The notes under the pieces were generated by a model. It made no database searches and was not told the DNA's origin. It worked only from the letters and a program-made list of their open reading frames with translations. Below, one piece after another: positions 4,494 through 61,475 of a stretch of DNA of 64,000 nucleotides. Location of the stretch: the NCBI RefSeq assembly GCF_964194155.1, contig NC_135907.1, positions 19,778,001 through 19,842,000 on the forward strand. The letters are read 5' to 3'. The position numbers and the translations under genes were made by a program. Source of the DNA: Cetorhinus maximus (lineage: Eukaryota). The first letter of the stretch is position 1, and each line of letters starts with the position of its first letter.

Positions 4494-6737
4494 TTACCAA
4501 TAATTGTAGCCACTTCCATCTGCGGGATAGTACATTTGGAAATTGCTGTTGTTGTACACAGGTCCCGTGCGGCTGGAACTGAACCTTGTGGCCGTGATGT
4601 TGGACTCCAGGTAGCCGTAGGCGGGCTGGAAGAGGCACTGGGGCCCGTCGCCCGCCATGGGAGGAGGGTTGTTGCCACCACCGACCGGGGTCAGCGGCTT
4701 GGGGGGATTCCGCGCGGTGTAGGAATACTCTGGCACAAAGGACCAGTACCCCACCAGGGGCGCGTAGGTGGCACGGATGTACGCCTGCCGCGGAACATAC
4801 TCCTGCGCCATTTGGCTGTAGTTGTACGGGTTGGTCGGCCGCACGAAGCAGCCAGCTTGCTGGTACGTAGGCTGCTGGTGGGGCATCCGCATGGTGCGCG
4901 GCTGGTAAAACGGCTGGTGTTGGGCGTAGCCGGGGGTGGACGGGGCAGCGGGAGGTGCAGCGGGCACCGGAGGGTAGTTCATAAGGGGTGGCCTGCTGGC
5001 CATAGGCAAGCTGCCACTGGGGAAGCGGGTAGGGTACATGTTGGCACCGTACTTGCTACCACAGTCGTACGTGGCCCCGGGCAGCTGGAGGTTGGAGCCA
5101 GCCGGACTCTTGTCCTGGTAGCTGATGGCCGCGCTTTCCAAGCCAGGAGGCTCGGCCTCCACTTGCGAGGGGAATAAGCTGCCGGCACACCTGCTGTCCC
5201 CATCTTTCCCTGCCCCGGGCGCCTGAAGGCTCTGCCCGCAAGCACTGTCCTCCTCCGCGCTGCTTGTCGTGCATTCGGACCCAACCGAGTCTGAGCTGGC
5301 ATGTCCGGGCCCAGGCTCAGCATCCTGTACGTCAGGTTTCTCCAGCAGCAAACAGTCTCTCTTGGCAGCGGCCATCTTGGCGTCGTCCTCGTTGAGCGTG
5401 AAAGCCGCCATCTTGTGACCCGCTTCTTTGCCACCTTCGCCGCCTTTGGCCAAATTGAAATCCTCCTTGTGTTTGACTCCCGCCAGACCGCCTGAAATAT
5501 CTCTGGCCTTGCCTGGCTCCTTTAGGGCTCCTTTTCTGGTGGAAGAAGCCATTCCTTTCAAGGCGTGGCGTGAGGTGCTGTAGCTATGTTCAGATTTGAC
5601 GCAAGTGCCACTCTGGGCCTTCTCCTTCGGCTCTGGAGAGTGGGTGTCGGGTGACTCCTGGCCTTCTGGTTCTTTCTGGGCGGCCTCCTTTTGGCCAGTG
5701 CAGAGCAGCTTGACCAAGTCATTGCCAGAGTCCAGGATCTCCTGAATCCTGGTGTCCGAGGGGGCCACGTGGCCCGTGGCCTTTGCGGCTGGCTCCTCGC
5801 GACGCTCCACGGTCCCGGGCGCCATGACCAGCTGGCGGCTCTCCGGCTTCGGGGCGGGCACCGGCTCCTCACACAGCTTAGCGAAGACGGGCAGCTGCCT
5901 CCGGGACTGCTCGTCCTGCGATTCCCCGGAAGTCAGGGGCGGGGGCGACGCCTCCACCTTTTTGTCTCCAGCGGAGCTGAACATGTTGTTCTGGAGGAAA
6001 TCCTTGATGATCTGAGCCTCCTCCATCACAACCTTGTTGTCGGGGGCCTCGGCCTCGTTGATGTGCTTCAAGGAGAACTGGGCGAGGAGTTGGCAGATCT
6101 CTTTGTTCGAGGCCACCGAGCCGCCCGTGTTCGCTTCAAGCTGAAGCAGGTCCTTCGGGCTGCATTTTGCGGGCTTCAATTCGGTTGCCTCTTCCTTGAC
6201 GAGGTTACTTTTCTTGGACATCGGGCCTGCGCCACTGACAGATTTCAAAATGTTGTTTAAGAAGTTGCCCTTTTCCAGCGGCTCCACACTGCAGCCTTGT
6301 AGCTCCACGTCTTTCCTAACGGAGCGCTCCAGGACAGACTCTGCCTGACATTTCTCGCCTGGCTTGGGCTGATGAAGTTCTATGTTGGCGTTTTCGCCCA
6401 TTATACTCATGTATTCCAAATGCACCAGCAGAGAAACGTCATCTTTACCACAGCTGTCCGGCACCTTCTCTTCCAGAGTTCCCTTGGCGTTTTCGCCGGG
6501 GTCCGCCATCTCGAGGTCGACCTCATTTCGGCTCGGCGCGGACTCCCCCGACTCCTTTTGGCTGGAATCGAGCTGGGCGGTGAGCTGCTGGACCCGCTTC
6601 CAGATCTCGTAGCAGGTTTTGTCCAGGCCGTCCTCCGGAGTATCCTCGTGGATCCAAGTGTAGCGTGGGTACGGCCCTAGAGGGAAGGAACACTTGGCAT
6701 CTTTCTGGGCATGGACCAACTCGAGCTTTGCCAGCAT
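4494..6737 (-). CDS. C1orf94: C1orf94/DUF4688-like protein, 747 aa, single coding exon
   Basis: Uninterrupted 2244-nt GC/CpG-rich ORF. Blocks recalled from human C1orf94 occur in the same order: LGPYPRYTWIHEDTPEDGLDKTCYEIWKRVQ, GKDDVSLLV, LLAQFSLK..PDNK..KDFLQNNMFS, RRQLPVFAKLC, RMPHQQ, PPPMAGDGPQCLF. Candidate AATAAA (minus) at 3727-3732; candidate 5'UTR acceptor near 6887. Confidence 0.85.
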   Translation of the reverse strand: MLAKLELVHAQKDAKCSFPLGPYPRYTWIHEDTPEDGLDKTCYEIWKRVQQLTAQLDSSQKESGESAPSRNEVDLEMADPGENAKGTLEEKVPDSCGKDDVSLLVHLEYMSIMGENANIELHQPKPGEKCQAESVLERSVRKDVELQGCSVEPLEKGNFLNNILKSVSGAGPMSKKSNLVKEEATELKPAKCSPKDLLQLEANTGGSVASNKEICQLLAQFSLKHINEAEAPDNKVVMEEAQIIKDFLQNNMFSSAGDKKVEASPPPLTSGESQDEQSRRQLPVFAKLCEEPVPAPKPESRQLVMAPGTVERREEPAAKATGHVAPSDTRIQEILDSGNDLVKLLCTGQKEAAQKEPEGQESPDTHSPEPKEKAQSGTCVKSEHSYSTSRHALKGMASSTRKGALKEPGKARDISGGLAGVKHKEDFNLAKGGEGGKEAGHKMAAFTLNEDDAKMAAAKRDCLLLEKPDVQDAEPGPGHASSDSVGSECTTSSAEEDSACGQSLQAPGAGKDGDSRCAGSLFPSQVEAEPPGLESAAISYQDKSPAGSNLQLPGATYDCGSKYGANMYPTRFPSGSLPMASRPPLMNYPPVPAAPPAAPSTPGYAQHQPFYQPRTMRMPHQQPTYQQAGCFVRPTNPYNYSQMAQEYVPRQAYIRATYAPLVGYWSFVPEYSYTARNPPKPLTPVGGGNNPPPMAGDGPQCLFQPAYGYLESNITATRFSSSRTGPVYNNSNFQMYYPADGSGYNYW

Positions 6738-7224
6738 AGTGTGGAAGGGGTGGGGGGGAGTTGGGCGGTGGGTGTGGTGTGGGGTTGCGGGGGTGGGTTA
6801 GGAGCCGGGCGGATTGCAGCAGTGTGATCCAACTTAGCTCTGCGTTTGCTTAACAACTTTACTGTTACTGAGCAACAGCCTTAAAACTGTAAATAAATAA
6901 TTACGACCTCACAATATTGCACTCCGATAGAGGATTCCGTGCCTGTAGGGCTCAGAATGTTAATAAACATCTTGTCCTTTGTGACATAGGATAATTTTGT
7001 CACTGTAACAACGGTGTTTAAAAGGATACAGTCGGTGAGGTCATAATGTAGTGTTAAAATAAAATGCCCCTTTTAAGAATTTTGAAACCATAAGGCTAGA
7101 AGCTGTTTAACACTCCTATGGAATTCCTGTCTCTGCTATTGCAAGGGGTGTCTAATCCATGATCCAATGACCAAATGTAGCTCCTGAGCCTTAGAGATCT
7201 GACCCAATATGACAGACAATTTAT

Positions 7225-10342: not shown

Positions 10343-12492
10343 ATCAGTGTCCAGGGGATTAATCGCTTGATTTCTGGAGACACCGGGACAATCCTGGAGA
10401 TGTTGGCCATCGATCTGCCCTGAAGTTGTGCAGAAAGTGCAGCAGTCACTGTGTCTGGGAAATGAGTGCAGGCCTTCTTAAGTGAGTAGGTGGGTGTGGG
10501 TAGGGCTTGGGTGGTGGAATGGAGTTGGGGGTGGTTGGGGGTGCGTTTGTTGACAGACTGGTGACAGAAGGTTTCATCACTTGCCAGCAGAGTGACAGGT
10601 GAGGAATGAGCAGTGAAATGTGAGCACAGTTCCTGGCAGGGGAAAGCACACCCACAGTGCGTGCGTGATGAAACTGGGACGAGACAAGCTGAGAGGAATC
10701 TCATTAAAACCTTGAGCCCATGAAGCCTCCAAGAATGTGCCCAACCACCTTTGCGATGCTCACTCTTTATTTTCGAGTCTGCCTCATTGTCGACATGCCA
10801 TCCTGAGTTGCCTGACCCGCCAGAGTTTGTCCGCTTTCAATCCTGAAGGAAAAAGGGGGTCAGCTTTTGCAGGGGTGGGGAGAGAGTTCCAGCCGTTTGA
10901 GGACTCTTTACCATATAATGTCTCTGCCCGCTCACTCAAGAATTGAACCTTTTCCAAATTGTATAATATTTCCTTCCCTTTGATAAATTGACTCCCTGAT
11001 TCATTCAGCACCATCATGTTGACGTCTTTTCTTCCTAGTTACCATGGCAATGTCAGGGATAATCCTTTTTTTTTTGGAACGAGCTCAAGGACTTCAGAGT
11101 GAAGACAGAGACTGGCCTTGTCATGCCAGCGGGAGGGGTGAATTTAATTTTATATCGACAGACCAGTCGGCTGCTAAACCTCACTGGCTTGTGCTGACTT
11201 TGATAGCCTTGCAACCATCCTAGTCATTCTGACGGGGGCCGAATTCACCCAGTTGCTGCCTTGAGCCGGTTCAGTTAAGGGCTGTGCATATCTTTCATTG
11301 GGGAAGCAAGGATGAAAGCAGCATTGTAAAACTTAACAGCTCAGGAGGCCATTCAGCCCATTGTGCCTCTGCCAATCCTCCCAAAGAGCTACACTATTAG
11401 TCCCCTAGCAACATGGGAACTGGAGGTGGGGGGGGCGTGGTGCAGTCAGGTCTTCAACACTGCTCCACCATCAACTCCATTCACCCATCTTAGCTCCATG
11501 CTCGTTGATACTGTTACTTGACAAAATAATTATCAATCTCAGTTTTGAAAGTTACAATCGTCCACCAGCGTCCACAGCATTTTGGGAAGAAAGCTCTGGA
11601 TTTCCACTACCCGTTCTTACAATCAGAGAATTAGAGGATGGTTACAGCACAGAAGGAGGCCATTCAGCCTGTCGTGTCCGTGCTGTCTCTCTGAAAGAGT
11701 AACTCAGTCCCACGGCCATGCCATTCTCCTGTAGCCCTGCAATTTTCTTCTCTTCAGATAAGCATCGAATTGCCTTTTGAAAGCTGTAAGTGAATCTGCT
11801 CCCACCAACTCTCAGGAAGTGCATTCCAGACCCTAGCCACTCTGCGTGGAAACAGTCTTTTTGATTTTGTTCCTAACGTTCGAACTCTAATTTTAAGCAG
11901 TTTCTCCATGTCTACCCCGTTGAGTCCTTTTAACCTTTTAAAGGTGTCGATCGGATCATCACCTCAGTCTTCTAAATTTATGGGAATATAAGCCGTGCTT
12001 TGCAACCTTTCCATGTAAGAATGCTCTTAAACCCCGGTATCATTCCCAAATGCTGCACCTCCTCCAAGCTCAGTATATCCTTCCTGAGGTGCAGTGTCCA
12101 ATTAAAACAGAAGGCAGGTCTGACCAAGGCTCTGAGCAACTCTCCCTCCCCTTTGTATTCCAATCTCCATTCTCTTCTATCTCATTAGTAAAGACAGTTC
12201 TTGTTTGAACTTTCCTTCGTGATTTTAAACAGCTCTGTCAGATCTCCTAACTATGGGTTTATCAAAGGTTATGCACATTATTTTCAGTCTTCCAAGGAAT
12301 TGCTTAGATGTGCGCCTGCCTCTGAAGGTTGCAGGTTCAAATCCGCTCCAGGGACTTGAAGACCTCATCAAGGCTGACACTTTTGTGCAATACTGAGGGC
12401 ATGCTGCCCTGTCAGAGGTACTGTCTTTCAGTTGAGACATTAATACAATGCCCTGCCGCTCTTCCAGGGCAATGTAAAATATTCCACGCTGC

Positions 12493-13800
12493 TGGGAGAG
12501 TTTGATAGAGCTTTACTCTGTATCTAACCCCATGCTGTACCTGTCCTGGGAGTGTTTGATGGGGACAGTGTAGAGGGAGCTTTACTCTGTATCTAACCCC
12601 GTGCTGTACCTGTCCTGGGAGTGTTTGATGGGGACAGTGTAGAGGGAGCTTTACTCTATATCTAACCCCGTGCTGTACCTGTCCTGGGAGTGTTTGATGG
12701 GGACAGTGTAGAGGGAGCTTTACTCTGTATCTAACCCCGTGCTGTACCTGTCCTGGGAGTGTTTGATGGGGACAGTGTAGAGGGAGCTTTACTCTGTATC
12801 TAACCCCGTGCTGTACCTGTCCTGGGAGTGTTTGATGGGGACAGTGTAGAGGGAGCTTTACTCTGTATCTAACCCCGTGCTGTACCTGTCCTGGGAGAGT
12901 TTGATGGGGACAGTGTAGAGGGAGCTTTACTCTGTATCTAACCCCGTGCTGTACCTGTCCTGGGAGTGTTTGATGGGGACAGTGTAGAGGGAGCTTTACT
13001 CTGTATCTAACCCCGTGCTGTACCTGTCCTGGGAGTGTTTGATGGGGACAGTGTAGAGGGAGCTTTACTCTGTATCTAACCCCATGCTGTACCTGTCCTG
13101 GGAGTGTTTGATGGGGACAGTGTAGAGGGAGCTTTACTCTGTACCTAACCCCGTGCTGTACCTGTCCTGGGAGTGTTTGATGGGGACAGTGTAGAGGGAG
13201 CTTTACTCTGTATCTAACCCCGTGCTGTACCTGCCCTGGGAGTGTTTGATGGGGACAGTGTAGAGGGAGCTTTACTCTGTATCTAACCCCATGCTGTACC
13301 TGCCCTGGGAGTGTTTGATGGGGACAGTGTAGAGGGAGCTTTACTCTGTATCTAACCCCGTGCTGTACCTGTCCTGGGAGTGTTTGATGGGGACAGTGTA
13401 GAGGGAGCTTTACTCTGTATCTAACCCCATGCTGTACCTGCCCTGGGAGTGTTTGATGGGGACAGTGTAGAGGGAGCTTTACTCTGTATCTAACCCCATG
13501 CTGTACCTGCCCTGGGAGTGTTTGATGGGGACATTGTAGACGGAGCTTTACTCTGTATCTAACCCCGTGCTGTACCTGTCCTGGGAGTGTTTGATGGGGA
13601 CAGTGTAGAGGGAGCTTTACTCTGTATCTAACCCATGCTGAACCTGTCCTGGGAGTGTTTGATGGGGACATTGTAGAGGGAGCTTTACTCTGTATTTAAC
13701 CCTTGCTGCATCTGCCCTGGGAGTGTTTGATGGGGACAGTGTAGAAGGAGCTTTACTTTGTATCTAACCCATGCTGAACCTGTCCTGGGAGTGTTTGATT
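12493..13800. repeat. 69-bp tandem repeat (~19 copies)
   Basis: Unit gagctttactctgtatctaaccccgtgctgtacctgtcctgggagtgtttgatggggacagtgtagagg; gives the spurious 23-aa-periodic ORF 12412..13671. Confidence 0.97.
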
Positions 13801-19982: not shown

Positions 19983-19988
19983 TTTATT
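19983..19988 (-). terminator. Polyadenylation signal of MUC15-like gene
   Basis: TTTATT on plus strand ~40 nt beyond the stop codon at 20029. Confidence 0.5.
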
Positions 19989-20028: not shown

Positions 20029-23000
20029 TTAGAGAAATATCTTCACCGAGCTTTCGGACATGGGTTTCAGCTGAATCTCGTCGCGGGTTTGCGGCTGGGA
20101 AACAGGGGCTTTAACCTCCCCCGCTGCCTGGTTCAGGGCTCGCTGTGACGTCACATGGTCTCCCTGACCCACTCGGCCAAGGTCAGGGATCAGGCTGCCG
20201 TAGAATCGATCAGCGGGCTCCACCGACACATCAAGGCTGAGAACTGGGAACGAAGCAGTGAGTGTTAAAGGTAAACTCGCTCCGCAATCTAATTCTACCT
20301 CCGGTCACCAGCCCCCACCATCAGCTTCACTGGCACAAGGTAAAGGTACCTCTGTGACCTCTGAAACCTGACCTTACAGCCTCCATTTGACACGCTATGG
20401 CCTCACCTTGTGACCTCTCAAACCCGGTCTCGGTTACGCATTACTATTGATGATAACTTAGAATCATAGAATGGTCACAGCGCTGAAGGAGGCCATTTGG
20501 CCCATCGGTCTGTCCCGGTTCTTTGTAACAGCAACTCAGCTAACGCCACTCCCCTCCCCCGCCCTTTCCCATAGCCCTACAGTTTTGAAACCCACGATTA
20601 AACCTGCCTTCACCACACTCTCAGGCAGTGCGTTCCGGCGGAGGGAATGAACGTTTGTGGATGGGGGGGACAATCAAGCGGGGCTGCTTTGTTCCGGATG
20701 GACGGTGTCAAGCTTCTCGAGTGTTGTGGGAGCTGCACTCATCCAGGCAAGTGGAGGGTATCCCATCACTGTGTAAAAAAAAAGTTTTTCCTCATGTCAC
20801 CGTTGGTTCTTTTGCCAATCAGCTCAAATCGATGTCCTCTGGTTCTCGATCCTTCCACCAATGGGAACAGTTTCTCCCAGTCTAATCTGTCCAGAACCAT
20901 CATGATTCTGAGGCAGTCCACACCCAGATGCAGCAAGACCTGGACAATATCCAGGCTTGGGCTAACAAGTGGCAAGTAACATTCACACCGCACAAGTGCC
21001 AGGCAATGACCATCTCCAACCTGAGGGAATCTAACCATCTCCCCTTGACATTCAATGGCATTACCATCATTGAATCCCCCACCATCAACATCCTGGGGGT
21101 TACCACTGACCAGAAACTGAACTGGATCAGCCATATAAATACTGTAGCTACAAGAGCAGGTCAGAGGCTAGGAATCCTGTGATGAGTAACTCACCACCTG
21201 ACTCCCCAAAGACTGTCCACCATCTACAAGGCACAAGTCAGGAGTGTGACTCACTTGCTTGAATAAGTACTGCTCCAACAACACTCAAGAAGCTTGACAC
21301 CATCCAGGACAAAGCAGCCCGCTTGATTGGCACCCCATCCACAAACATTCACTCCCTCCACCACCGACGCACAGTAGCAGCAGTGTGTACTATCTACAAG
21401 ATGCACTGCAGCAACTCACCAAGGCTCCTTAATCTGCACCTTCTAAACCCATGACCCTCTACCATCTAGAAGGACAAGGGCAGCAGACACATGGGAACAC
21501 CACCACCTGGAAGTTCCCCTTCGAGCCACTCACCATCCTGACTTGGAAATATATCGCCGTTCCTTCACTGTCACTGGGTCAAAATCCTGGAACTACCTCC
21601 CTAACAGCACTGTGGGTGTACCTACACCACATGGACTGCAGCGGTTCAAGAAGGCGGCTCACCACCACCTTCTCAAGGGCAATTAGGGATGGGCAATAAA
21701 TGCTGGCCCAGCCAGCGACGCCCATATCCCATGAATAATTTTTTAAAAACCCATCTCAATGTGCACAATATGCCACCCCTGTCTCCATTACATTAAGGGG
21801 CTAATTTATTGTGTTAAAATGGATAAACACCTCTGCTGAATGCCCAGGTTAAGTGCCTGTCTGCAGTTTTTAATCATTTGCAGGTAGGGGCTTGGAGGAC
21901 ACGCTTGGCCTGTGCTACAGGTCCCAGATTTGCCAGGGCATTCCTGGCTCTTCACTAAACCAGGACATCTCACAAGGTCTGTCCGGGCCATTGTCCTGGA
22001 CGTGGAGTTGACTGCGTCTCTTGGCAACCATGAGGTCGCGTTCGGTGGAGGACGTGCAGCAGGTGCTGCAGCTCCAGGTCAAAGCACTCAATGAGGGGAG
22101 AAACAGCTCGATAAAAATTTTGGAATGGGGCACAATTGCATAGACTTTCATGCTTTAGTGTGGAACTCAATATTACCGGTAACTGGTCAACATGTCCCGG
22201 TTCTGACTTTTGAAATCTGGTCACCCTCGCCTGTGCAGCTGGGCGATGGGAGAATGGGGCTGAAGCAGGGCCTGAGGCTGTCAAGTCACCCAATGCAACT
22301 GCCACTGGACATGAGGCCAGAGGGATAGTCACGGGGCCCAGGAAAAGTTAGGAATTGGAGCTTCTGCCAAAGGCGCAGAATTTGCAAAGATAGGTAGGAA
22401 AGTTTAAATTGTGAAGAGGACGTAAGGAGGCTACAAAGTGACATCGTTGGGTTAAGTGAGTGGGCAAAGATCTGGCAAGTAGAGTGTAATGTGGGCAAAT
22501 GTGAAATCGTTCATTTTGGCAGGAAGAATTAAAAAGAAACTTATTATCTAAATGGTGAGAGTTTACAGAGCTCTGAGATTCAGAGGGATCTGGGTGTCCT
22601 AGTGCATGAATCACAAAAGGTTGGTATGCAGGTACAGCAGGTAATTAGGAAAGCTAATTGAATGTTATCATTTATTGTAAGGGGAATTGATTACAAAAGT
22701 AGGGAGGTTATGCTTCAGTTGTACAGGGTACTGGTGAGACCACATCTGGACTATTGTACAGTACTGGTCTCCTTATTTAAAGAAAGATATAAAGGCGTTA
22801 GAACAGTTCAGAGAAGGTTTCCTAGACTAATATCAGGACGGGTTGTCTTATGAAGAAAGACAGGACAGGTTAAGTTTGTATCCACTGGAATTTAGAAGAG
22901 TAAGAGGTGACTTATTTGAGACATTTAAGATCCTGAGGGGTCTTGACAGGGTAGATGTGGAGAGGATGTTTCCTCTTGTGGGAGAATCTAGAACTAGGGG

Positions 23001-26000
23001 GTCACCGTTTAAAAATAAGGGGTCACTCGTTTAAGACAGAGACGAGGAGAAATTTTTTTCTCTCAGAGGGTTGAGAGTTTTTGGAACTCTCGTCCTCAAA
23101 AGGCGGTGGAAGCAGAGTCTTTGAATATTTTTAAGGCAGAGCGAGATAGATTCTTGATTAACAAGGGGGGTGAAAGGTGATCAGGAATGTGGGGGTGAGG
23201 TGACAATCAGATCAGCCATGATCTTACTGAATGGCGGAGCAGGCTCGAGGGGCCAAGTGGCCGACTCCTGTTCCTAATTCGTATGTTCGATACCGGGAGG
23301 AATGTGAGGTGGGAATAATAAGGAGTGAGGGGAACGTGTGGGCTGGGGGAGTAACTTGTTCTTTCCAATGACGGTGCACTGCAAATAATAAAAAAGTCCT
23401 TCCTCTGCACTGTGTGACAGTCCTCCTTCTCCGGCTCCCAGCCCTACAGTGGGGAACTCTCTAGAAAAGAGGGAAGATGGGGTGGGGTAGCTAGTGCTTT
23501 CAGCCTGTGTGGCTTTGACGAAGGGAGTCTTAAACTCGGTCACCAACTCTGGCTGCGCACCTTCCTGGAGGTTTCATCGCATGACCAGCAGCCTCCAACA
23601 GCCCCACACCACCCCCCACACCCCGCCCCCTCACTACTCCCTCACACCCACCCCCTCAAACGCAACCGCCCCCCACCCCACCCCCCAGCATTTTTTTAAC
23701 AGTCCCCCGTGATTTTTCTTTTTTCTGGGTGTTATTCAGATGGCAGTGCCCCGGAGATGAATCTTTAATTCCTAGACACGCCAGATCAAAACTTTGAGGG
23801 GTTGGCAACCCAAGCAGTGAAGCCTGAACGAACAGGCCCGATTTTGTAACCCAACCGCCTCTTTTACCTGGGTCGCTGTTGTACAGCCTTTGGTGTGAGA
23901 AGGGGTCATCCTTTTGAGTCCTGTTGTAAATCAAGTAGACCAGCCCAAACACCAGCAGCAGGACAACCGCTAAGCCAACAAAGAGCCCCAGTGTTTTCCC
24001 GGACTGTCTCTTCTTCTCTGCCTCGGGATTGTTCTGACCTGAAACCAGAGACACAATGTCAGTCAGCTCCTCTGGACAATGTCCCACCGTTCATCCTCCA
24101 TAAGCTTAAGCTCATAGAGTTATAGAGTCATTAAGGCACGGAAGGAGGCCATTTGGCCCATCGAGTCCATGCCAGCTCCCCGTGGAGCACCCCAGTCAGT
24201 CCCACTCTCCTGCTCAGTCCCCATAGCCCGGCAAGTTTATTTCCCTCAAGTGCTCATCCAATTTCCTTTCAAAATCATTCATCGTCATCAGCTTCCATCA
24301 TCCTTGTGGGCAGCGAGTTCCAGCAGTCACTACCACTCACTGCATAAAAAAAAGGTTCTTCCTCACGTTCCCCCCCTACATCTCTTGCCCAATAAACCTT
24401 AAATCTGTGTCTTCTGGGACCTTGTTCCTCCACGACTCTGTTGGCCAAATCGCGCCAAGTCCCATTCGCCCATCACCCCAATCTATGCACGTGACCTGCA
24501 TTGGTTCGCAGTCCAGCATCGCCTCAATTTTAAATCCTTGTTTTCAAATTCCTCCATGGGCCTCACCTGCACCGCCATTCTCCCTGGGAGCAGGAACCCT
24601 CCGAGATCCCCAGGCTCCTCCGATCCCAGCTCCTTGAGCATACCCAGTTTTAACTGCTGCACCAGTGACGATGACCATGCCTCCAGGTGCCTGAGCTCCA
24701 AACTCTGGGATTCCTTCATGAAACACCAACTGTCCCCGTGATTTTTCTTTCTTTCTGGGTGTTTGCCATGATGTCGGTGCCCTGCAGATTAATCTTTAAT
24801 TCCTAGACGCTCCAGATCAAAGCTTTGAGGGGTTGGCAACCCGAGCAGTGAAGCCTGAATGAACAGGCCCGATCCACCCCTCTCTCCTCCTTTAAAACCC
24901 TCCTTAAAACCGGCATCTTGGACTCAGCTTTTGTTCACCCCTCCGAATACTTGCTCTCTTTGTGGCTCGGAGTTACATTTTATTTTGATAATGATCCTAA
25001 GGTTGCCTTTCTACACTGAGGGCTCTGTGTACATGCAAGTTGTTGTACTTCCTGTTTTCATGTGTCCCCATTGGACAGCAAGTTAGTCCAGTAATAGCTG
25101 GTGATGTGGAGGCTCTGCTTCACCCCACCCTTACGTTCCTCCCACGTCTTGAGTTCCTGCATGCTAGACCTCTGTCTTATTTCTCTTTGCCCTTCCACAC
25201 GCCCCCATCTCATTTTCACTTTGCTTGTTCTGGCGGGGCACAATTCCATTGGCATGATTAGCACCCCTCCCCCACACCCTGACCTCCAATCCCTTCAAAG
25301 TGGAACCTCCTACCCACCACACCACCTCCCCACCCCCCCCAACCTCCTCCCACACTTGGCAGAGGCTGAGAGATAATGTTAGCAGCTCATTCAACCAGAG
25401 AGTCCATAGCTGAACCCAAATCTCCCCTCACCCGACATTGACACAGCCTAGAAGAGAGAAATGCCCAAGAACTGCAATTGGCATTGGGGCCTGGTATCTG
25501 GAGATCATGGAACATAATTTTTACAAGAAGTTGTGTAAGTGTTAGAAATGACTTCATATAAAAGGGTAAGGGACAGAGAAATAGGGTTAGTTTAAAAAAA
25601 ACATTTTTCTATTTCTATAGCATCTTTTTATATACAGAACATCCCAAAGTACTTTACAACACAAGCCATTTGGCCCAATTGGTCCATGTTTATGTTCCAC
25701 TTGAACATCCTACCCCCTCTTCATTCACCCTATCAGTATATCCCTCTATTTTTTTTCTCGGCCTCGTTTACTTATCTAGCTTCCTCTTAAATGTAACTAC
25801 ACTATTCTCCTCAACCACTCCCTGTGGTAGCGAGTTCCACCTTCTCATCGTTGTCCGGCTAACCAACTTTCTCCTGAATTTTCTAGGAACATAGGACTTA
25901 GAAGAAGGGGTAGGTCATTCAGCCCTTTGAACCCGCTCCACCATCCAATAAGATCATGGCTGATCTGGTTGTGGCCTCAACTCCACTCTCCTGTCTGTCC

Positions 26001-28074
26001 CCCTTGACCCTTGACTGTCAACAACCTGACTAACTCAGCCTTGAGTAAATTCAATGACCTCCGCTGCTTTCTAGGGAACAGAATTCCACAGATTAACAAC
26101 CCTCAGAGAGAAAATACTTCTCCTCATCTCCGTCTGAATCGATAATTTAGTTTCCTATTGGATTTACTAGTGACCGTCTTATATTGTGGACCCATTAATA
26201 CCCAGCTCAGCTGAGATCAAGCGTCTTCTTAAATCCAGTCGCGGTGCCACATTCTCAGCATTCCCTGATTTACCTCTTTTCTGTAATGTCCTGTGATCAG
26301 GTCACAGCCTTATCCCTTCAGTGTCTGATGCATCTTACAATGATTGACTTTCACAACTGCCGCATGATCCTTATGATGTGACAATGCTCCCCCATTTCTG
26401 CATCACAGGAGTGTCTCTGTGACATAATAGGAGCAATCTAAAAGGGCCAGATCCTCTGATTCAACATCAAATCAAAGTCCATACCCTCTCCCAGGGTGAT
26501 TGTGAGGATTTGCTGGTGGCTGGCGGGGAGGGTGGATTTAAAATCGACCAAAAATTACAGCTCATCCTGTTGAGTCGGGACATTATCATCCCTCTGCCCA
26601 GCTGGCTCACTCACTTGCAGTCCCGCTCAAATCACAGACTTAACCCTGGAGACTACCAGGACCAGTCTCTCGCTGACCGACGTAGAGATACGGGGCAAAA
26701 GGCATCCCTTAAGGGTGACAAACAGTCAAACTAAGGGAGGATACCTTAAAATAAGGGACTCATCGCCCCACAAACAGACCCAATGTTGCTTGAGGGGAGC
26801 ACAGGCCAGAGAATCAGACTACGGGAGATAGTGAAATAAAAGCAAAATTCTGCAGATGCTCGAGATTGGAAATAAAAAAGGAAAATGCTGGAAATACTCA
26901 GCAGGTTCGGCAGCATCTGTGGAGGGAGAAGCAGAGTTAACATTTCGAGCCCAATATGACTCTTCTTCAGAACCCAAAGGGAAACAAGAGCCAATCAGGC
27001 TCAAAATGTTGAACCTGTTTGTCTCCCCACAGAAGCTGCCAGATCTGCTTAGTTTTTCCAGAGCTTTCTGCTTTTATTTGCGAGAGATCTCCCCCTGCTC
27101 CTGGCTCACCTCCTATACCACACAGAATTTATACCAGCCGGTAGCATCATCATAGTTAGCTACAGAAAGCTGTGGTGTAAATTCTAGGCTGCTCCTCTGT
27201 GTGCCGTATGGGGAGTGCTGCACTGTCAGAGGTGCTGTCTTTTGGATGAGATGTTAAACTGGGGCCATGTCTGCCCTCTCCGATGAATGGAAAAGATCAT
27301 AGTGCCAGTTGAAATGAGGGCAGGGAGCCTTCCCCCCAGTGTCTTGGCCCATATTAATCCCAAAACTGACATCACTGGCCATTGCTGCTTGTGGGAGCTT
27401 GCTGTGCGCAAATTGGCTGCCACACTTCCTACATGACAACAATGACCGCACTCCATTGGCTCTAAAAACGCTATGGGACGTCTTTGTATGGTAGAAGGCG
27501 CTATAAAAATGCAATTTCTTTAGTTTCCTATTTAACTTAAAACAATGGCAGCCGAACCGAAATGGTTTCATTTACCTGGAGCGATGGGGGGTTCACAAGA
27601 GACGTGTTCCATTTCCCGGGCGGTACTCGCAGGCGTTCCTGTCAGCGTGGTTGAGGGGACTCCGGGTTCCCCCGACGGAGAGGCAGGCGGCGGGGTGTCC
27701 TCGGGTCCATGAGGGGCCACGGTAGGCCGAGGCTCAGCGGTCGGACTCCCCGGCTGCGCGGCGGCGTTCCCCGTCCCAATCTCGGGAGCTTCGGTTCGCC
27801 CCGCCGGGAGGGGGTTGCCGTCGGGTGGCGTCTCGCTCTGGGCGGCCGGGGAGCTGCCGAGAGAAACGGTGGCGTTGGCCGGGCCGGCCTCGCTTTGGTC
27901 CGGCGTCGTGCTTCTGTTGTCCGGGGAGCTGGACGACGCTCTTACGGTGGAATGGACAGTGGCGTTGGCGGTGAAGAACATTGTGAGGGTGGAGTAATCC
28001 GGTGACTGGGCCACGGATGCCGAGTGAAGGCTGCACAGGAGCATAACGGAGAGCGAATGCACCAAAGGACTCAT
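20029..28074 (-). CDS. MUC15-like type I membrane mucin, 294 aa; coding exons 28074-27576, 24038-23868, 20243-20029
   Basis: Exon 1: good Kozak (gccATG), signal peptide MSPLVHSLSVMLLCSLHSASVA, S/T/P-rich ectodomain with NAT/NRS sequons. Exon 2: TM helix TLGLFVGLAVVLLLVFGLVYLIY. GT-AG phase-1 junctions join in frame (499+171+215=885 nt) giving tail DDPFSHQRLYNSDPVLSLDVSVEP...RDEIQL, which resembles MUC15 (DSFSHRRLYDDRNEPVLRLDNAPEP...RDGIPM). AATAAA (minus) at 19983-19988; 5'UTR acceptor at 28127-28128. Confidence 0.8.
20905..21750 (+). mobile_element. 3' fragment of the same APE-RT LINE family
   Basis: MQQDLDNIQAWANKWQVTF...PTINILGVTTDQKLNW and the shared 3' tail. Confidence 0.9.
22350..23290 (+). 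mobile_element. CR1 LINE 3' fragment
   Basis: Degraded RT C-terminus (LQSDI..WAKIWQ, GIDYKSREVMLQLYRVLVRPHLDY, RRVRGDLFETFKILRGLDRVD) and typical shark CR1 tail atcagccatgatcttactgaatggcggagcaggctcgagggg. Confidence 0.9.
23702..24873. repeat. ~141-bp direct repeat pair (23702-23842 and 24732-24873) bracketing the TM exon
   Basis: gtccccgtgatttttctt...ttaattcctagac.c.ccagatcaaa.ctttgaggggttggcaaccc.agcagtgaagcctgaa.gaacaggcccgat present twice in the same orientation. Confidence 0.9.
26832..27080. mobile_element. Inverted pair of Penelope-like terminal fragments
   Basis: aaaatgctggaaatactcagcagg..gcagcatctgtggag..gttaacatttcgag followed by its diverged reverse complement. Confidence 0.75.
26934..26975 (-). 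ncRNA. Minimal type I hammerhead ribozyme motif (Penelope-associated)
   Basis: Minus strand GGGUU-CUGAAGA-A-GAGUC-AUAUUG-GGCUC-GAAA-UG-UU-AACUC: stem I, CUGAnGA core, stem II, GAAA, minimal stem III. Confidence 0.6.
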
Positions 28075-29654
28075 GGCGTCGTCGCTATTCCTCGGTCCCT
28101 AACCTCTGGTTCCTTGCCTTGAGAGACTAAGGTGAAGAAAGACAAGACAGAACAATCGCCTGCCTGATTATCTTAATGGAATACTCCATACTGCAATTCT
28201 AACCTCCTATCTGAGCCATTCTTACTGATAGGTCCCACGACCGATAGCTAAAGGCCGAAAGACAGGACTGGCATTTCTATAGCGCCTCAGGATATCTCAT
28301 AACATTCTACAGCCAATGGCATTGCTTTTGCAGTGTTGGTCACTAGGAAACACGCGAGCCAATTTGTGCACAGCAAGCTCCCACAATCAGTGGATCTGAC
28401 CAGTTAGTCCATTTTTAGCGATGTTGGTTGAGGGGTTAACTGTGGGCCCCAGGACACCGGTGGGAGAACTCCCCTGCTCTTGTTCCAAATACTAGAGGTT
28501 GCACCGCTCCTGTTCCCCTGTCTGGGCAGACGGGGCCTCAGTTTAAAGGTCTCATCCGAAAGCCAGCACCTCCGACAATGCAGCACTCCCTCTATACTAT
28601 TTCCCGGTGGGCCAAGTGCCCATCTCATTTTGAAATCACCGGTTGCCTCTGCTTCCATCACCATCGTGGACAGCGAGTTCCAGGGTCATTGCCACTTGCT
28701 GAGTAAAAATGTTCTTCCTCACATTCCCCTCCACCCCCTCAACCCCACACAACTGCATCGCTTGCTCCAAACCTTAAAACACCGTCCCCAGTCCTTGTAG
28801 TGGGAACACTTTTCTCTTTGTCGACCTGATCTAAACCTGGCACAATCTTGCATACCTCTCTTAAATCTCCTCTCAGCCTCCGTCGCTCCAGGGTGAACAG
28901 CCCCAGTTTCTGCAACCCGACCCGTGTACCTGTTTCGATCTGAGAATGCACGAAATCAGTTTCCTCAGCAAAAAGCCTTACTTACTTACACTGTGGGGCG
29001 TGGAATCACCCCCACCGTGAAGCCCAGGTATCGTTTGGTGGATGAAGACTCAGGCGATGGACACTTGCTGCTTCTACAGGTGTCTCAGGCCCCTCCCCGA
29101 TATTCTGAGCAGGTATGACATCATTTCGAAGCTGACATCTCGCCGCTGAACGAGGAATGGGGGAGGGAGCCATGCGAGAACAAGGACGTGCAAAGCAAGA
29201 AAAATTCGGAGCAGGCGAATCAATGTGGTGGGGCTTTCGGACAGCTGGCCCACTCCTTAACAAACTACATGTTTAAAGAGTTGAGTTAAAATCTCGTCTT
29301 TTTTTATTCGGCTGGCTAATTAAAAAGAAACTGAGCAGGTGGCAGGAGAGGTAGCAGGTTCACAGGAGACTTCCTGCTGAAGTTGTTGACATTGTACAAG
29401 CACACTTTGCGTAGAATCCCTTCGGACATGAACGATTTTCAGTCCATTAACCCCTAGTACAATTCAATCGAAGTCCCAGAGGCTCAAAGCCACGGTAGCA
29501 TCGGATATCCTGTTGCTTTTGAGTTGAATGCAGCCCATTCTCTCCGCCAGGCTTACTATATCTTAATTTAGTTTCATCTTTAATTAAAAATAGGATTTTA
29601 AATGATATCTAAATCGCTGTTGGAACATAATAAAAAGAAGGATTAAAATATGAC

Positions 29655-37526: not shown

Positions 37527-55009
<17,483 letters not shown>

Positions 55010-57035: not shown

Positions 57036-60000
57036 TCACAGCAACACTCTCCTGGCACTGCAGAAGTCCGGTTTGATGCTCTGCACCGTGCAGTCAGTGT
57101 AATCCATTTTACAGCGGTTGCATTCACAGCTGACTGCCACAGGGTAGGTGTAGGTGGAGTCAACACCCAAGGGGCAGCCTGGCAGCCTGATGGCCTCATA
57201 TCGAATCTCCTTGTAAGTACACACATGCTGGTAAACTGACAGGAGAGGGCTCTTGTATACTGATTCCTGCAGTCAAAGAATATGTTCTTAGTTAATCATT
57301 ACAATGTTTCAACCTTGTCTCCAGACATTGAGTAAGATTCTTATTTTACAACCTTTGGGTAGAAAGTTCTTCCCCGTTTTATTTGAAATCTTTTGTTCCC
57401 AATCTTGGTACAATCTCAAAGTCTTTCTGTTTGCACTTCCTGTAAGCATTTCCCCATGGAACAGAAGGACAATTACTTAATGCTTTTGGCTATATCATTC
57501 ACAACTAATTAATTATTTTTGAAATGTAATCGCTGTTGTTTTGGAGGGAAACCAGGCAGCAAGGTCCCATGAACAGCAATCTAATAATGACTAGATCAAC
57601 TGTGGTGGTTTGAGGGATAGATGGTGCCCAGGACGCTGGGGAAATGCCCCTGTTCCTCCTCATTGGATCTTTTGCATCACGTGAGCGGGCAGAATTTTAA
57701 CATCTCACCTGAAAGATGATAGCTCTGGCAGTGCAATACTCCCTCAGTACTGTACTAAAGTGCCAGCTCAGATTACGGGTTCAGTCAAGTCTCTGGAATG
57801 GTCCTTGAACCCTTCACCACCTTGTTCAGAGGTTTAATTACATCATTTCCCCAAGGAGGCACTACCACCCATGGTGGGAGGATGTAACTAAAGTGTGACA
57901 AGTTATAAATATGTATTTAGGAACTCATGCATTAGTTTGTTTTTCCAGTATGAATGAATACCAGGCCCAGTTACCTCACATTTACCCCATTGTAGACTTT
58001 CCATGACAGGATATTAACTAGTATTTTCTAATCTTTTTCCCTTTTCCACATTTTTATTTCTTCCCCCAAAGGCCATTTTCAAAGTGTGCAAAATTACACA
58101 TGTTGTACAATAATCTGGGCTTCGGGTAATAACATTTCAATTTGCGTTTCAACCACCGATGTTTTAGCCCCAAAAGTAACAGTTTCCACCTCAGATATTT
58201 CTGAAAGGTGACTCTAGTTTTAGATTTCATAGAATCAGACAGACCACAAGGAGGCCCATCATGTGTGTGTCAGCTCTGTGAAAGAGCGACCCAATGAGTC
58301 CCACACCCTCGCTCTTTTCCCATTGTCCTATAATTTCTCCCCTTCAATTATTTATTCAATTCCTTTTTGAAAGGTACAACTGCCACCCTTTCAAGCAGCA
58401 ACATGCATTCTTGCTTTATCAGGTAGACTGTTGGATGCTGGATTCCAACTTAAGGAAATTTGTCAAGTTCTTCTCCAGCATAACTGCAGAAATGAACCCT
58501 GCTTTCCATATCCATGCATCTTCCTAGACATACGTAAGGTCCCAGCCCTTGAAGGCAACTCACCACCACTCCTTTCCCACCCTGGTGAGTGTCAGCACAA
58601 TATTTAATCATGAGATGTGAATCCTACTCTTTCTCCATCTCACACCCACCACTGCACTTCTCAAGCTAGATCATTGGGTAATTGTCGTGCAGGACTCCAA
58701 TTAATCTTAGCCCCTCACTTAGTCAAAGGGTGCCAAAGCCAGTAGTGATTCAGCTGCTGCCCAGTACAAAAGCAGCTACCTCAGGTATTGAACATATGAC
58801 CACTGCTGTGGGCAACACTATTTGTGGCTACAAGGGCAGGTCAGAGGCTGGCAATGCTGTGGAGGGTAACTGAATAATTTTTGGAGGGTACCTCACCTGA
58901 TACCCCAAAGCCTGTCCATATACAAAAAAAACCCATTAGCATAGAAAGGGAGGAGGTTCTAAGTGGTCTGGCAGGATTAGAAGTAGATAAATCTCCAGGC
59001 CCGGATGAAATGTATCCCAAGCTGTTGAGTGAAGCAAGGGAGGAGATAGCAGGGGTGCTGGCAATAATTTTCAATACCTCTCTGGCCACAGGAGAGGTGC
59101 CAGAGGACTGGAGGACAGCCAATATGGTACCGTTATTTAAGAAGGGAGGAAGGGATAAACCAGGGAACTACAGGCCAGTCACTCTAACTCAGTGGTGGGG
59201 AACATATTGGAAGCAATTCTGAGGGACAGAACTAATCTACACTTGGAGAGGCAGCGATTAATCAAGGACAGTCAGCATGGTTTAGTTAAGGGGGGTGTCA
59301 TGTCTGATCAATTTGATTGAATTTTTCGAAGAGGGGACCAGGGTATGTAGATGAGGGAAATGCATTTGACGTAGTCTATTTGGACTTCAGCAAGGCTTTT
59401 GATAAAGTTCCGCATGAGAGACTGATAATGAAGAGCCCATGGGATCCAAGGCAAATTGGATCCAGAATTGGCTGAGTGGCAGGAAGCAGAGGGTGATGGT
59501 CAGGGGGTGTTTTTGTGACTGGATGCCTGTGTCCAGGGATCGGTGTTGGGTCCCTTGCTGTTTGTGGTATGTAGGAGGGTTGATAAGTAAGTTCAGGGAT
59601 GATGAAAATTGGTGGGGTGGTAAATAGTGAGGAGGATAGCCTTAGATTACAGGAGGATATAGACGGGCTGGTCAGATGGGCTGATCAGTGGCAAATGGAT
59701 AAGTGTGAGGTGATGCACTGGGGCAGGACAAACAAAGCACAGGAATACACGATGAATGGTAGGACCCTGGGAAGTACCGAGGATCAGAGGGACCTTGGTG
59801 TGCATGTCCACTGGTCTCTTTAGGTAGTGGGACAGGTAGATAAGGTGGTTAAGAAGGCATATGGGATACTTGCCTTTATTAGCCGAGGCATAGAATATAA
59901 GAGCAGGGAGGTTGTGCTGGAACTGTATAAAATGCTGGTTAGGCCACGGCTAGAGTATTGCATGCAGTTCTGGAATCCGTATTATAAGAAGGATGTGATT

Positions 60001-61475
60001 GCACTTGAGAGAGAGCAGAGGAGATTTACCAGGCTGTTGCCTGGGCTGGAGAGTTTTAGTTATGAGGAGAGATTGGATAGACTGGGGTTATTTTCCCTGG
60101 AGCAGAGGAGATTGAGGGGGGACATGATTGAGGTGCATAAAATTATGAGGGGCATAGCTAGGGTAGACAGGAAGGAACTTTTCCCCTTTGGAGGAGGGAT
60201 CAATAACCAGGGGGCATAGATTTAAGGTAAGGGGCAGGAGGTTTAGAGGGGATGTGAGGAAGAATTTTTTCACCCAGAGGGTGGTGGGAATCTGGAACTC
60301 ACTGCCTGAAAGGATGGTAGAGGCAGAAACCCTCATAACATTTAAGAGGTATTTGGATGTGCACTTGCGATGCCATGGCATACAAGGCCTAGTGCTGGAA
60401 AATGGGACTAGAATAGTTAGCTGCTTGTTTGACCGGCACAGACTCGATGGGCTGAAGGGCCTTTTTCTATGCTGTACAGCTCTATGACTCTATAACCATT
60501 GGATTTGCCTGTTAAACTTTCTAGGAACTTGGAATTGTTATAAATGAGGATCTAAGCCTCAGCAGTTTTTTGGGGGAAAGAGCTCTCTGAGAAGGCTCCT
60601 TTGGTGTTGGTACAGAACAAGTAAAGGCCAGTCAGCCCTTCCAGCTCACCATGTCACTCACTTTCAGATTCACTGCACTACTTCAGAGAGGGAGACAGGC
60701 TTCATTATTTCCATCAATTCCAAGCCCAAACTGTGGGTCTTCATGGGGAGGGGGGGAGAGGGGTGGGCTGGTATATCACCAGTCTCCACCTTGTTTAATC
60801 TTCCCCAGGTGCTTATGGGCTCACTTCACTCAGTCTCGATGGACCCTGAGTAGTTTAAAAGAAAATTATTCAAGTGTTCCCAATGCTGACTGACAGGTCC
60901 AGCAGCCTTGTGCTAGCGCGCGGACACTCGGGTGAGGAGGGTTGTTAAACTTTGGAATGCTCTTCCCCTGAGAACAGTGAAGGTTGGGTCATTGACTACA
61001 TTCAAGACTGATTATCATTTTTGATTGATAAAAGAGTCAAGGGTTATGGAGGGAGCAGAAGGAAAGTGGAGTTGATCAGATCAGACATGATCGCATTGAA
61101 TGGCAGAGCAGGCTTGAGGGGCTGAATGACCTCTTCCTGAGTAGGATAGTAATAAGAATGGCTGCTTGCACAAGGTGCTGGGGAAAACCTTTGGATGATG
61201 GGGTGGGGTGGTGGGCGGCGGGGGGGGGGAGCGGTGGTACAAGTGGCAGGGGATGTGAGTAGGGTGTACAAAGAAAAGGCAGAGGTCCCATTTCCCCCCC
61301 CATCCCCCATTACCTTTGTTGGACAGTAGCCACTGCATATGGAAGTAGTGAGGCTCACACAGATAGGGCACTCATCCTTTTCGGCAGAGATTGTCACGTT
61401 GGTCGGGTGGCAGAGGTGTCGGCTTTGGACAAAACACAAGCACAGTGCGAGGAGGAACAGCTGAGAGGAGCACAT
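57036..61475 (-). CDS. LHB: Luteinizing hormone beta subunit precursor, 130 aa; coding exons 61475-61314 and 57266-57036
   Basis: Signal peptide, then [36 protein letters not shown]|[69 protein letters not shown]; 12 cysteines of glycoprotein-hormone beta cystine knot, single NVT sequon; tail-to-tail with RUVBL2 as for mammalian LHB. Confidence 0.95.
58935..60495 (+). mobile_element. CR1 LINE fragment in LHB intron 2
   Basis: [68 protein letters not shown]; ends in ctctatgactctat tail. Confidence 0.95.

Follow-up and report, generated by a model that had tools for sequence, protein, structure and literature searches.

Which gene lies beside RUVBL2 and LHB in the shark Cetorhinus maximus, and does it belong to a line that mammals have lost? 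The question is raised by the window analyzed here, a stretch of 64,000 nucleotides (contig NC_135907.1, positions 19,778,001 to 19,842,000 of the forward strand, assembly GCF_964194155.1). A sequence-only reading had described an unnamed MUC15-like membrane mucin at 20029..28126 and taken it for a paralogue of MUC15 that arose by whole-genome duplication, was retained in sharks, and was lost from mammals. The duplication fares better than the loss. The favored explanation, to which we give a probability of roughly 0.82, is that the gene is an intact cartilaginous-fish orthologue of GFY (Goofy) and that GFY and MUC15 are genome-duplication twins.

The window gene is a real three-exon gene for a membrane protein. 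Its coding exons lie on the minus strand, are separated by GT-AG introns of phases 1 and 1, and encode a single-pass protein of 294 amino acids (aa), with the following layout.

27576..28126, minus strand: first coding exon, coding at 28074-27576 (499 bp), with the ATG at 28074 and 52 nt of 5' untranslated region behind an acceptor at 28127; it encodes a putative signal peptide (about residues 1-22, by eye and alignment) and an S/T/P-rich ectodomain.
23868..24038, minus strand: membrane exon, 171 bp, phase 1-1, with the transmembrane helix and the juxtamembrane F-x-H-x-R-L-Y motif.
20029..20243, minus strand: last coding exon, 215 bp, with the V-L-x-L-D continuation of the motif and the rest of the cytoplasmic tail, including an I-Q-L motif.
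20031-20029, minus strand: stop codon TAA, in the last coding exon.
19983..19988, minus strand: AATAAA, predicted polyadenylation signal, 41 nt past the stop codon.

Two of all the GT/AG combinations tried gave an open frame, and one of these two has good splice contexts. That combination is identical (100% over 294 aa) to the NCBI model XP_078388105.1 ("uncharacterized protein LOC144669511"), which may derive from the same genome and so is not independent; the unnamed membrane mucin proposed earlier thus stands as three GT-AG-spliced exons. The protein has a single hydrophobic segment, at about residues 181-203, and its ectodomain contains 25% S+T, 17% P, and three N-glycan sequons. Since 28126 is a splice acceptor behind a pyrimidine tract, a noncoding first exon should lie further upstream; a tblastn search for it with the N-terminal extensions of ray proteins gave nothing convincing. 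All three exons are covered by DNA contigs of sequencing run X1, and run X5, whose RNA nature is only guessed, covers repeats and not the exons and has no bearing on expression. No match to O/E (EBF) site patterns occurs from the gene to the first matched RUVBL2 exon.

Kinship with MUC15 appears once the exons are joined, as had been foreseen for the tail. The Pfam family Mucin15 (PF15672), the sole Pfam family matched, hits the spliced protein with an E value of 7.5e-5 at 22.8 bits, below the 27-bit gathering cutoff, compared with an E value of only 0.12 for a single window exon. A Mucin15 search of the genome gave one match above the cutoff, an exon on contig C9 (60.7 bits), which belongs to a separate, true shark MUC15.

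G000:C9:130782469-130795036, minus strand: true shark MUC15, 376 aa, three coding exons of 784, 171, and 176 bp.

The two genes have equal intron phases (1 and 1), an equal membrane exon of 171 bp, and the second intron at the same position. An anoctamin gene, with exon matches at 130.74-130.90 Mb, spans the C9 gene on the opposite strand; FSHB is 270 kb away and BDNF 2.4 Mb, so that the separate MUC15 anticipated by the sequence-only reading exists near the expected neighbors; human MUC15 is presumably likewise nested antisense in ANO3. The window gene has no anoctamin host, as none of 68 anoctamin matches from a stricter first look is on C30, the contig that holds the window. Its protein also differs from C9 MUC15 in N-glycan sequons (3 versus 14), in Thr content (12% versus 28%), in the start of the helix, and in the absence of the Y-Y-N-P-type tail motif of MUC15. 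When the window clade, GFY, and MUC15 are aligned, 18 of 142 columns are common to all three groups, mostly in one cytoplasmic motif, and Mucin15 also matches frog GFY (28.2 bits, above the cutoff). The window gene is very likely an ohnologue of MUC15.

Relatives of the window protein occur in other cartilaginous fishes. With residues 175-294 as the query, 10 proteins were recovered among 426 candidates: the window protein, seven full membrane forms from sharks, rays, and skates, and two short isoforms. Little can be learned from the names they carry in databases (PERK1-like, mucin-5AC-like, sialidase-like), and the name GFY is carried by none of the seven cartilaginous-fish clusters looked up. 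One skate relative, 269 residues long, comes from a 994-base Logan contig that we infer to be a spliced transcript. In a comparison of seven cartilaginous-fish proteins, the membrane-plus-juxtamembrane core has 42 invariant positions out of 61 and the distal tail 13 out of 53, but just 2 of 180 ectodomain positions are invariant, and the disparity between core and ectodomain places the conservation beyond chance. A conserved tyrosine motif had been proposed for the tail; the Tyr of H-x-R-L-Y (Y219) is indeed widely kept (8/8, 12/14, and 7/10 alignment rows), whereas Y-x-x-L at 238 is not preserved in amphibian GFY. In RefSeq isoforms of Stegostoma and Hypanus, the membrane exon is skipped in frame (57 and 59 residues), giving a predicted secreted form, and the phase 1-1 membrane exon of the window gene permits the same skip.

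Among bony vertebrates, the best matches are a coelacanth protein and amphibian proteins whose NCBI name is GFY. A profile of eight cartilaginous-fish proteins, searched over 1.84 billion representatives, gave 29 matches, 4 from sharks or rays and 25 from elsewhere. The latter comprise nine frog proteins named GFY, a coelacanth "mucin-15-like" protein, one unnamed protein each from a lungfish and a newt, a truncated GFY-like protein that was not looked up, seven proteins named MUC15, two unnamed MUC15-like proteins, and three matches without the motif (P0027, P0033, and P0034), which were discarded as compositional. The top 8 of the 25 (81 to 56.5 bits) are the coelacanth, six frog GFY-named proteins, and the newt, with Latimeria XP_005996776.2 as the top bony-vertebrate match (80.9 bits); the best MUC15, from gar, scores 51.4 bits. 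A second search, with a 14-row alignment, found 16 proteins among 7,989 scored candidates; those with names are amphibian or shark, and two are unnamed Logan proteins. Profiles that contain no shark rows give the window protein 71.8 bits against bony GFY and 47.5 bits against bony MUC15, and the C9 gene 46.0 and 101.9 bits, respectively. A frog GFY query against the genome ranks the window membrane exon first among six candidates, weakly (E value of 0.225; first-look scoring only), and in the Atlas a skate orthologue query reaches a GFY cluster (518 aa, 288 members) at 0.94. The structure model that the Atlas gives for the skate protein has a pTM of 0.18.

Phylogeny of the membrane helix plus tail (32 rows, 129 columns, unrooted) agrees with these scores. 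It excludes isoforms that skip the membrane exon, one protein of low quality, one that is truncated, near-duplicates, and the three dropped matches. A branch with support of 100/98 sets apart the 10 rows of MUC15, among them gar, bichir, teleost, amphibian, and bird MUC15 and the C9 shark gene, from 22 rows that hold the window clade, coelacanth, lungfish, and 12 amphibian rows (newts and frogs) and that follow species order; the window clade is thus apart from MUC15 and falls with amphibian GFY. In a tree of the 61-column core, MUC15 again stays on one side (99/99). When the window group and shark MUC15 are held together as one clade, the arrangement is rejected by an approximately unbiased (AU) test (P = 0.0019; group chosen after the tree was seen). 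The duplication that separates MUC15 from GFY is, by the tree, older than the split between sharks and bony fishes. Two bony-vertebrate proteins, Latimeria XP_005996776.2 and Protopterus LOC122791794, are placed between the shark clade and amphibian GFY; they are misnamed or unnamed and resemble unrecognized GFY orthologues. Matches from gar, bowfin, bichir, and teleosts are all of MUC15 type, and neither the 29 nor the 16 matches include a ray-finned-fish protein of the GFY side, a weak hint that GFY was lost in ray-finned fishes.

The proteins themselves are alike in form. Amphibian GFY (for example, Xenopus laevis XP_018083672.1) and the window protein are both single-pass proteins with a low-complexity ectodomain; both have K-x-L-x-x-F-x-G at the start of the helix, Y-x-I-Y at its end, the F-S-H-x-R-L and D-P-V-L-x-L-D motifs, and a tail of about 90 residues that ends near I-Q-L/M. 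The window protein has three fewer residues than frog GFY between the two motifs, retains MUC15-like E-P-x-D-x-x-Y-G residues that GFY does not, and has 17% proline in its ectodomain compared with 3-6% in the bony-vertebrate rows.

Gene order points in the same direction. The neighbors RUVBL2 and LHB named by the sequence-only reading are both in the window, the former as TIP49 exons, and a third neighbor stands on the other side of the gene.

4497..6797, minus strand: DUF4688 open frame, 767 codons, with two DUF4688 matches (E value of 1.7e-37) and a Tyr/Pro/Gln-rich C terminus.
40763..50001, plus strand: TIP49 (RUVBL2) gene, two exon-bearing frames; the gene runs beyond these limits.
57060..61418, minus strand: LHB, two cystine-knot exons at 57060-57269 and 61308-61418.

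The TIP49 gene is taken to be RUVBL2 rather than RUVBL1 from its motif, and the last LHB exon, taken alone, scores best on FSH-beta. The order on C30 is ALDH16-like (minus, 19.60-19.64 Mb), PIH1D1 (plus, 19.66 Mb), VGLUT (plus, 19.73-19.77 Mb), DUF4688 (minus), the window gene (minus, 19.80 Mb), RUVBL2 (plus), LHB (minus), and SNRNP70 (minus); past SNRNP70, within 464 kb, are PPP1R12C-like, troponin, and DUF4471 exons. The contig also carries PTH2, at 25.83 Mb, and the VGLUT gene is 31 kb from the window gene. The aldehyde dehydrogenase neighbor has two separately matching ALDH stretches, and its best solved match is a 767-residue enzyme, from which we assume the name ALDH16-like. The human order, which we take to be GFY-SLC17A7-PIH1D1-ALDH16A1 with GFY tail-to-tail with SLC17A7, agrees with the shark arrangement. 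Human GFY is placed at 19q13.33 in a table of PMC10076756, and the co-deletion list given in PMC2859053 contains PTH2, SLC17A7, PIH1D1, and ALDH16A1, without GFY. The claim that a MUC15-like gene is absent from this region in mammals, and with it the word "lost," is not supported: the window gene falls among proteins that carry the NCBI name GFY, and the earlier reading's own refuting outcome, a match to a different named mucin, has occurred.

The block around MUC15 is paralogous to that around the window gene. On C9, an anoctamin lies at 128.48 Mb, VGLUT (plus) at 128.67 Mb, MUC15 (minus) at 130.79 Mb inside an anoctamin, FSHB (minus) at 131.06 Mb, and BDNF at 133.21 Mb, so that VGLUT (plus), a mucin-like gene (minus), and a gonadotropin-beta gene (minus) have the same order and orientation on C30 and C9. 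That the window gene is a shark-specific duplicate or translocated copy of MUC15, as its sole Pfam match might suggest, is hardly credible: each copy stands between a VGLUT and a gonadotropin-beta gene, paralogous and equally oriented in the two blocks, the tree and the AU test contradict it, and the Pfam family matches frog GFY too. A third block (G000:C23:4750001-5530000) has VGLUT at 4.75 Mb, anoctamin at 5.27-5.31 Mb, and a TSH-beta-like gene at 5.52 Mb (best match, thyrotropin beta), which may be the second TSH-beta reported for cartilaginous fishes. A search of these 780 kb of C23 for a third MUC15/GFY member gave nothing better than an E value of 0.46; the two known exons scored 77 and 83 bits, but both were part of the profile. 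NTF4 would, we assume, be expected on C30, and no neurotrophin was found there; the three neurotrophin matches in the genome are on C8, C9, and C12. The one on C8 (G000:C8:57081511-57084840) is divergent. No lamprey, hagfish, or invertebrate homologue that could serve as a preduplication outgroup occurs among the matches of the two profile searches. The shared exon layout, the paralogous blocks, and the lack of a third member among our matches uphold the earlier idea of a small, two-gene family with an origin in large-scale duplication, and the genome duplications of early vertebrates are the likely source of GFY and MUC15 as twin copies.

Orthology is not provable from sequence alone, and several results weigh against calling the window gene GFY. 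Mammalian or reptile GFY is found in 0 of the 29 and 0 of the 16 profile-search matches, so that amphibian GFY is tied to mammalian GFY by NCBI names and by the human gene order given above; a frog GFY query in the Atlas likewise gave no named mammalian GFY row, and the Atlas ranks mucin-15 clusters (0.96 and 0.95) and TMEM108 (0.95) over the GFY cluster. The 32-row tree is short and unrooted, and the core tree carried a warning of long branches meeting and fails to keep the GFY side in one group (64% of bootstrap trees). At the level of residues, the window clade agrees with GFY at nine columns and with MUC15 at eight. The VGLUT gene is named SLC17A7 by position only, since its sequence matches VGLUT2 and no VGLUT1 chain is among the matches, and the DUF4688 gene stands between it and the window gene.

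Some of these observations would suit a MUC15 ohnologue that was kept in sharks, lost in mammals, and distinct from GFY, for example, a third member sister to GFY. Orthologues and sister paralogues look alike in a tree without a root, the stem of the window clade is long and its MUC15-like columns are retained, and mammalian sequence is absent from the profile-search matches. Such a gene is nevertheless improbable, as the window gene shares a chromosome block with the neighbors of GFY at human 19q13.33, the branching of shark, coelacanth, lungfish, newt, and frog suits one orthologous line, and neither the surrounding 464 kb nor genome searches (first-look searches, giving lower bounds) revealed a second family copy. 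We conclude that the window gene is very probably the orthologue of GFY.

What GFY would do in a shark can be approached from the mouse, where Gfy is described as residing in Golgi membranes of olfactory, vomeronasal, and Grueneberg neurons (bioRxiv 10.64898/2025.12.17.694945). Its loss is reported to mislocalize Adcy3 and shorten cilia (PMC12677133, PMC5243839), and together with Clgn and Rtp1 it gives a modest rise in receptor surface expression. Mouse Gfy is expressed in both V1R and V2R lineages. In the proposed mechanism, the signal peptide would bring the window protein into the secretory pathway, and the fast-evolving S/T/P-rich part would be a glycosylated spacer whose exact sequence is of little importance. 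The conserved work would fall to the membrane helix and the cytoplasmic F-x-H-x-R-L...D-P-V-L-x-L-D motif common with MUC15, which is probably a sorting or adaptor-binding site. By orthology, the protein would be located in the Golgi of chemosensory neurons of the nose, where it would help signaling proteins reach the sensory membrane; in sharks, the host neurons would be microvillous V2R neurons. As the data on catshark olfactory epithelium fit a lack of ciliated olfactory neurons (PMC10116579), the cargo in the shark would differ from that in the mouse. For MUC15, deletion of the tail is reported to have left its antimetastatic effect unchanged (PMC12752613), so that a tail-based mechanism is unproven even there, which also counts against this proposal. 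By analogy with the mouse, a Golgi and olfactory role of GFY in sharks is somewhat favored.

A different role is conceivable for a gene that is GFY by descent. In sharks it might act like MUC15, as an epithelial cell-surface glycocalyx protein with a secreted form, and the olfactory Golgi role would then have come later, in tetrapods. The catshark data fit this idea, as the mouse knockout phenotype concerns Adcy3 and cilia, as do the RefSeq isoforms without the membrane exon in two species. It seems less likely all the same, since mouse Gfy is also described in V2R-lineage vomeronasal neurons, the cartilaginous-fish tail is longer than that of MUC15 (83-97 versus 64-67 residues, by the same measure) and without the Y-Y-N-P-type motif, and the ectodomain is less rich in S/T (0.23-0.32 versus 0.30-0.47). 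A broader view, which we offer tentatively, builds on the olfactory role: GFY would be as old as jawed vertebrates and a twin of MUC15, serving microvillous V2R neurons without cilia in sharks; its ancestral job would be general chemosensory cargo sorting through a short cytoplasmic motif still present in MUC15, of which the delivery of Adcy3 to cilia in the mouse would be one use, and ray-finned fishes may have lost the gene.

Other features of the region bear less directly on the gene. The DUF4688 frame is the only such locus found in the genome, its frame from the first Met is absent from the protein collection, and the term was not found in the literature searched. An open frame at 12415-13695 on the minus strand (427 codons) consists of a near-perfect 81-bp tandem repeat and is probably a noncoding minisatellite. 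Exon-like frames without a Pfam match lie between LHB and SNRNP70 (L051:2700-3164, minus strand) and between PIH1D1 and VGLUT (L043:7677-7850, plus strand).

GFY, MUC15, and the named amphibian GFY were already known, and the kinship is implicit in databases, in which Mucin15 matches frog GFY; the surprise is limited for this reason. No statement of MUC15-GFY kinship or of a shark GFY was found in the literature searched, whose coverage leaves out most subscription journals. With this identification, a false "lost gene" is removed, names are corrected for shark, ray, skate, coelacanth, and lungfish proteins, and Goofy, a little-studied olfactory trafficking protein, gains an origin and a relative. 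The 18 common columns are a direct target for mutagenesis of both Goofy cargo sorting and MUC15 tail function. Because the catshark nose seems to be without ciliated neurons, catshark GFY would offer a natural test of the tie between Goofy and cilia.

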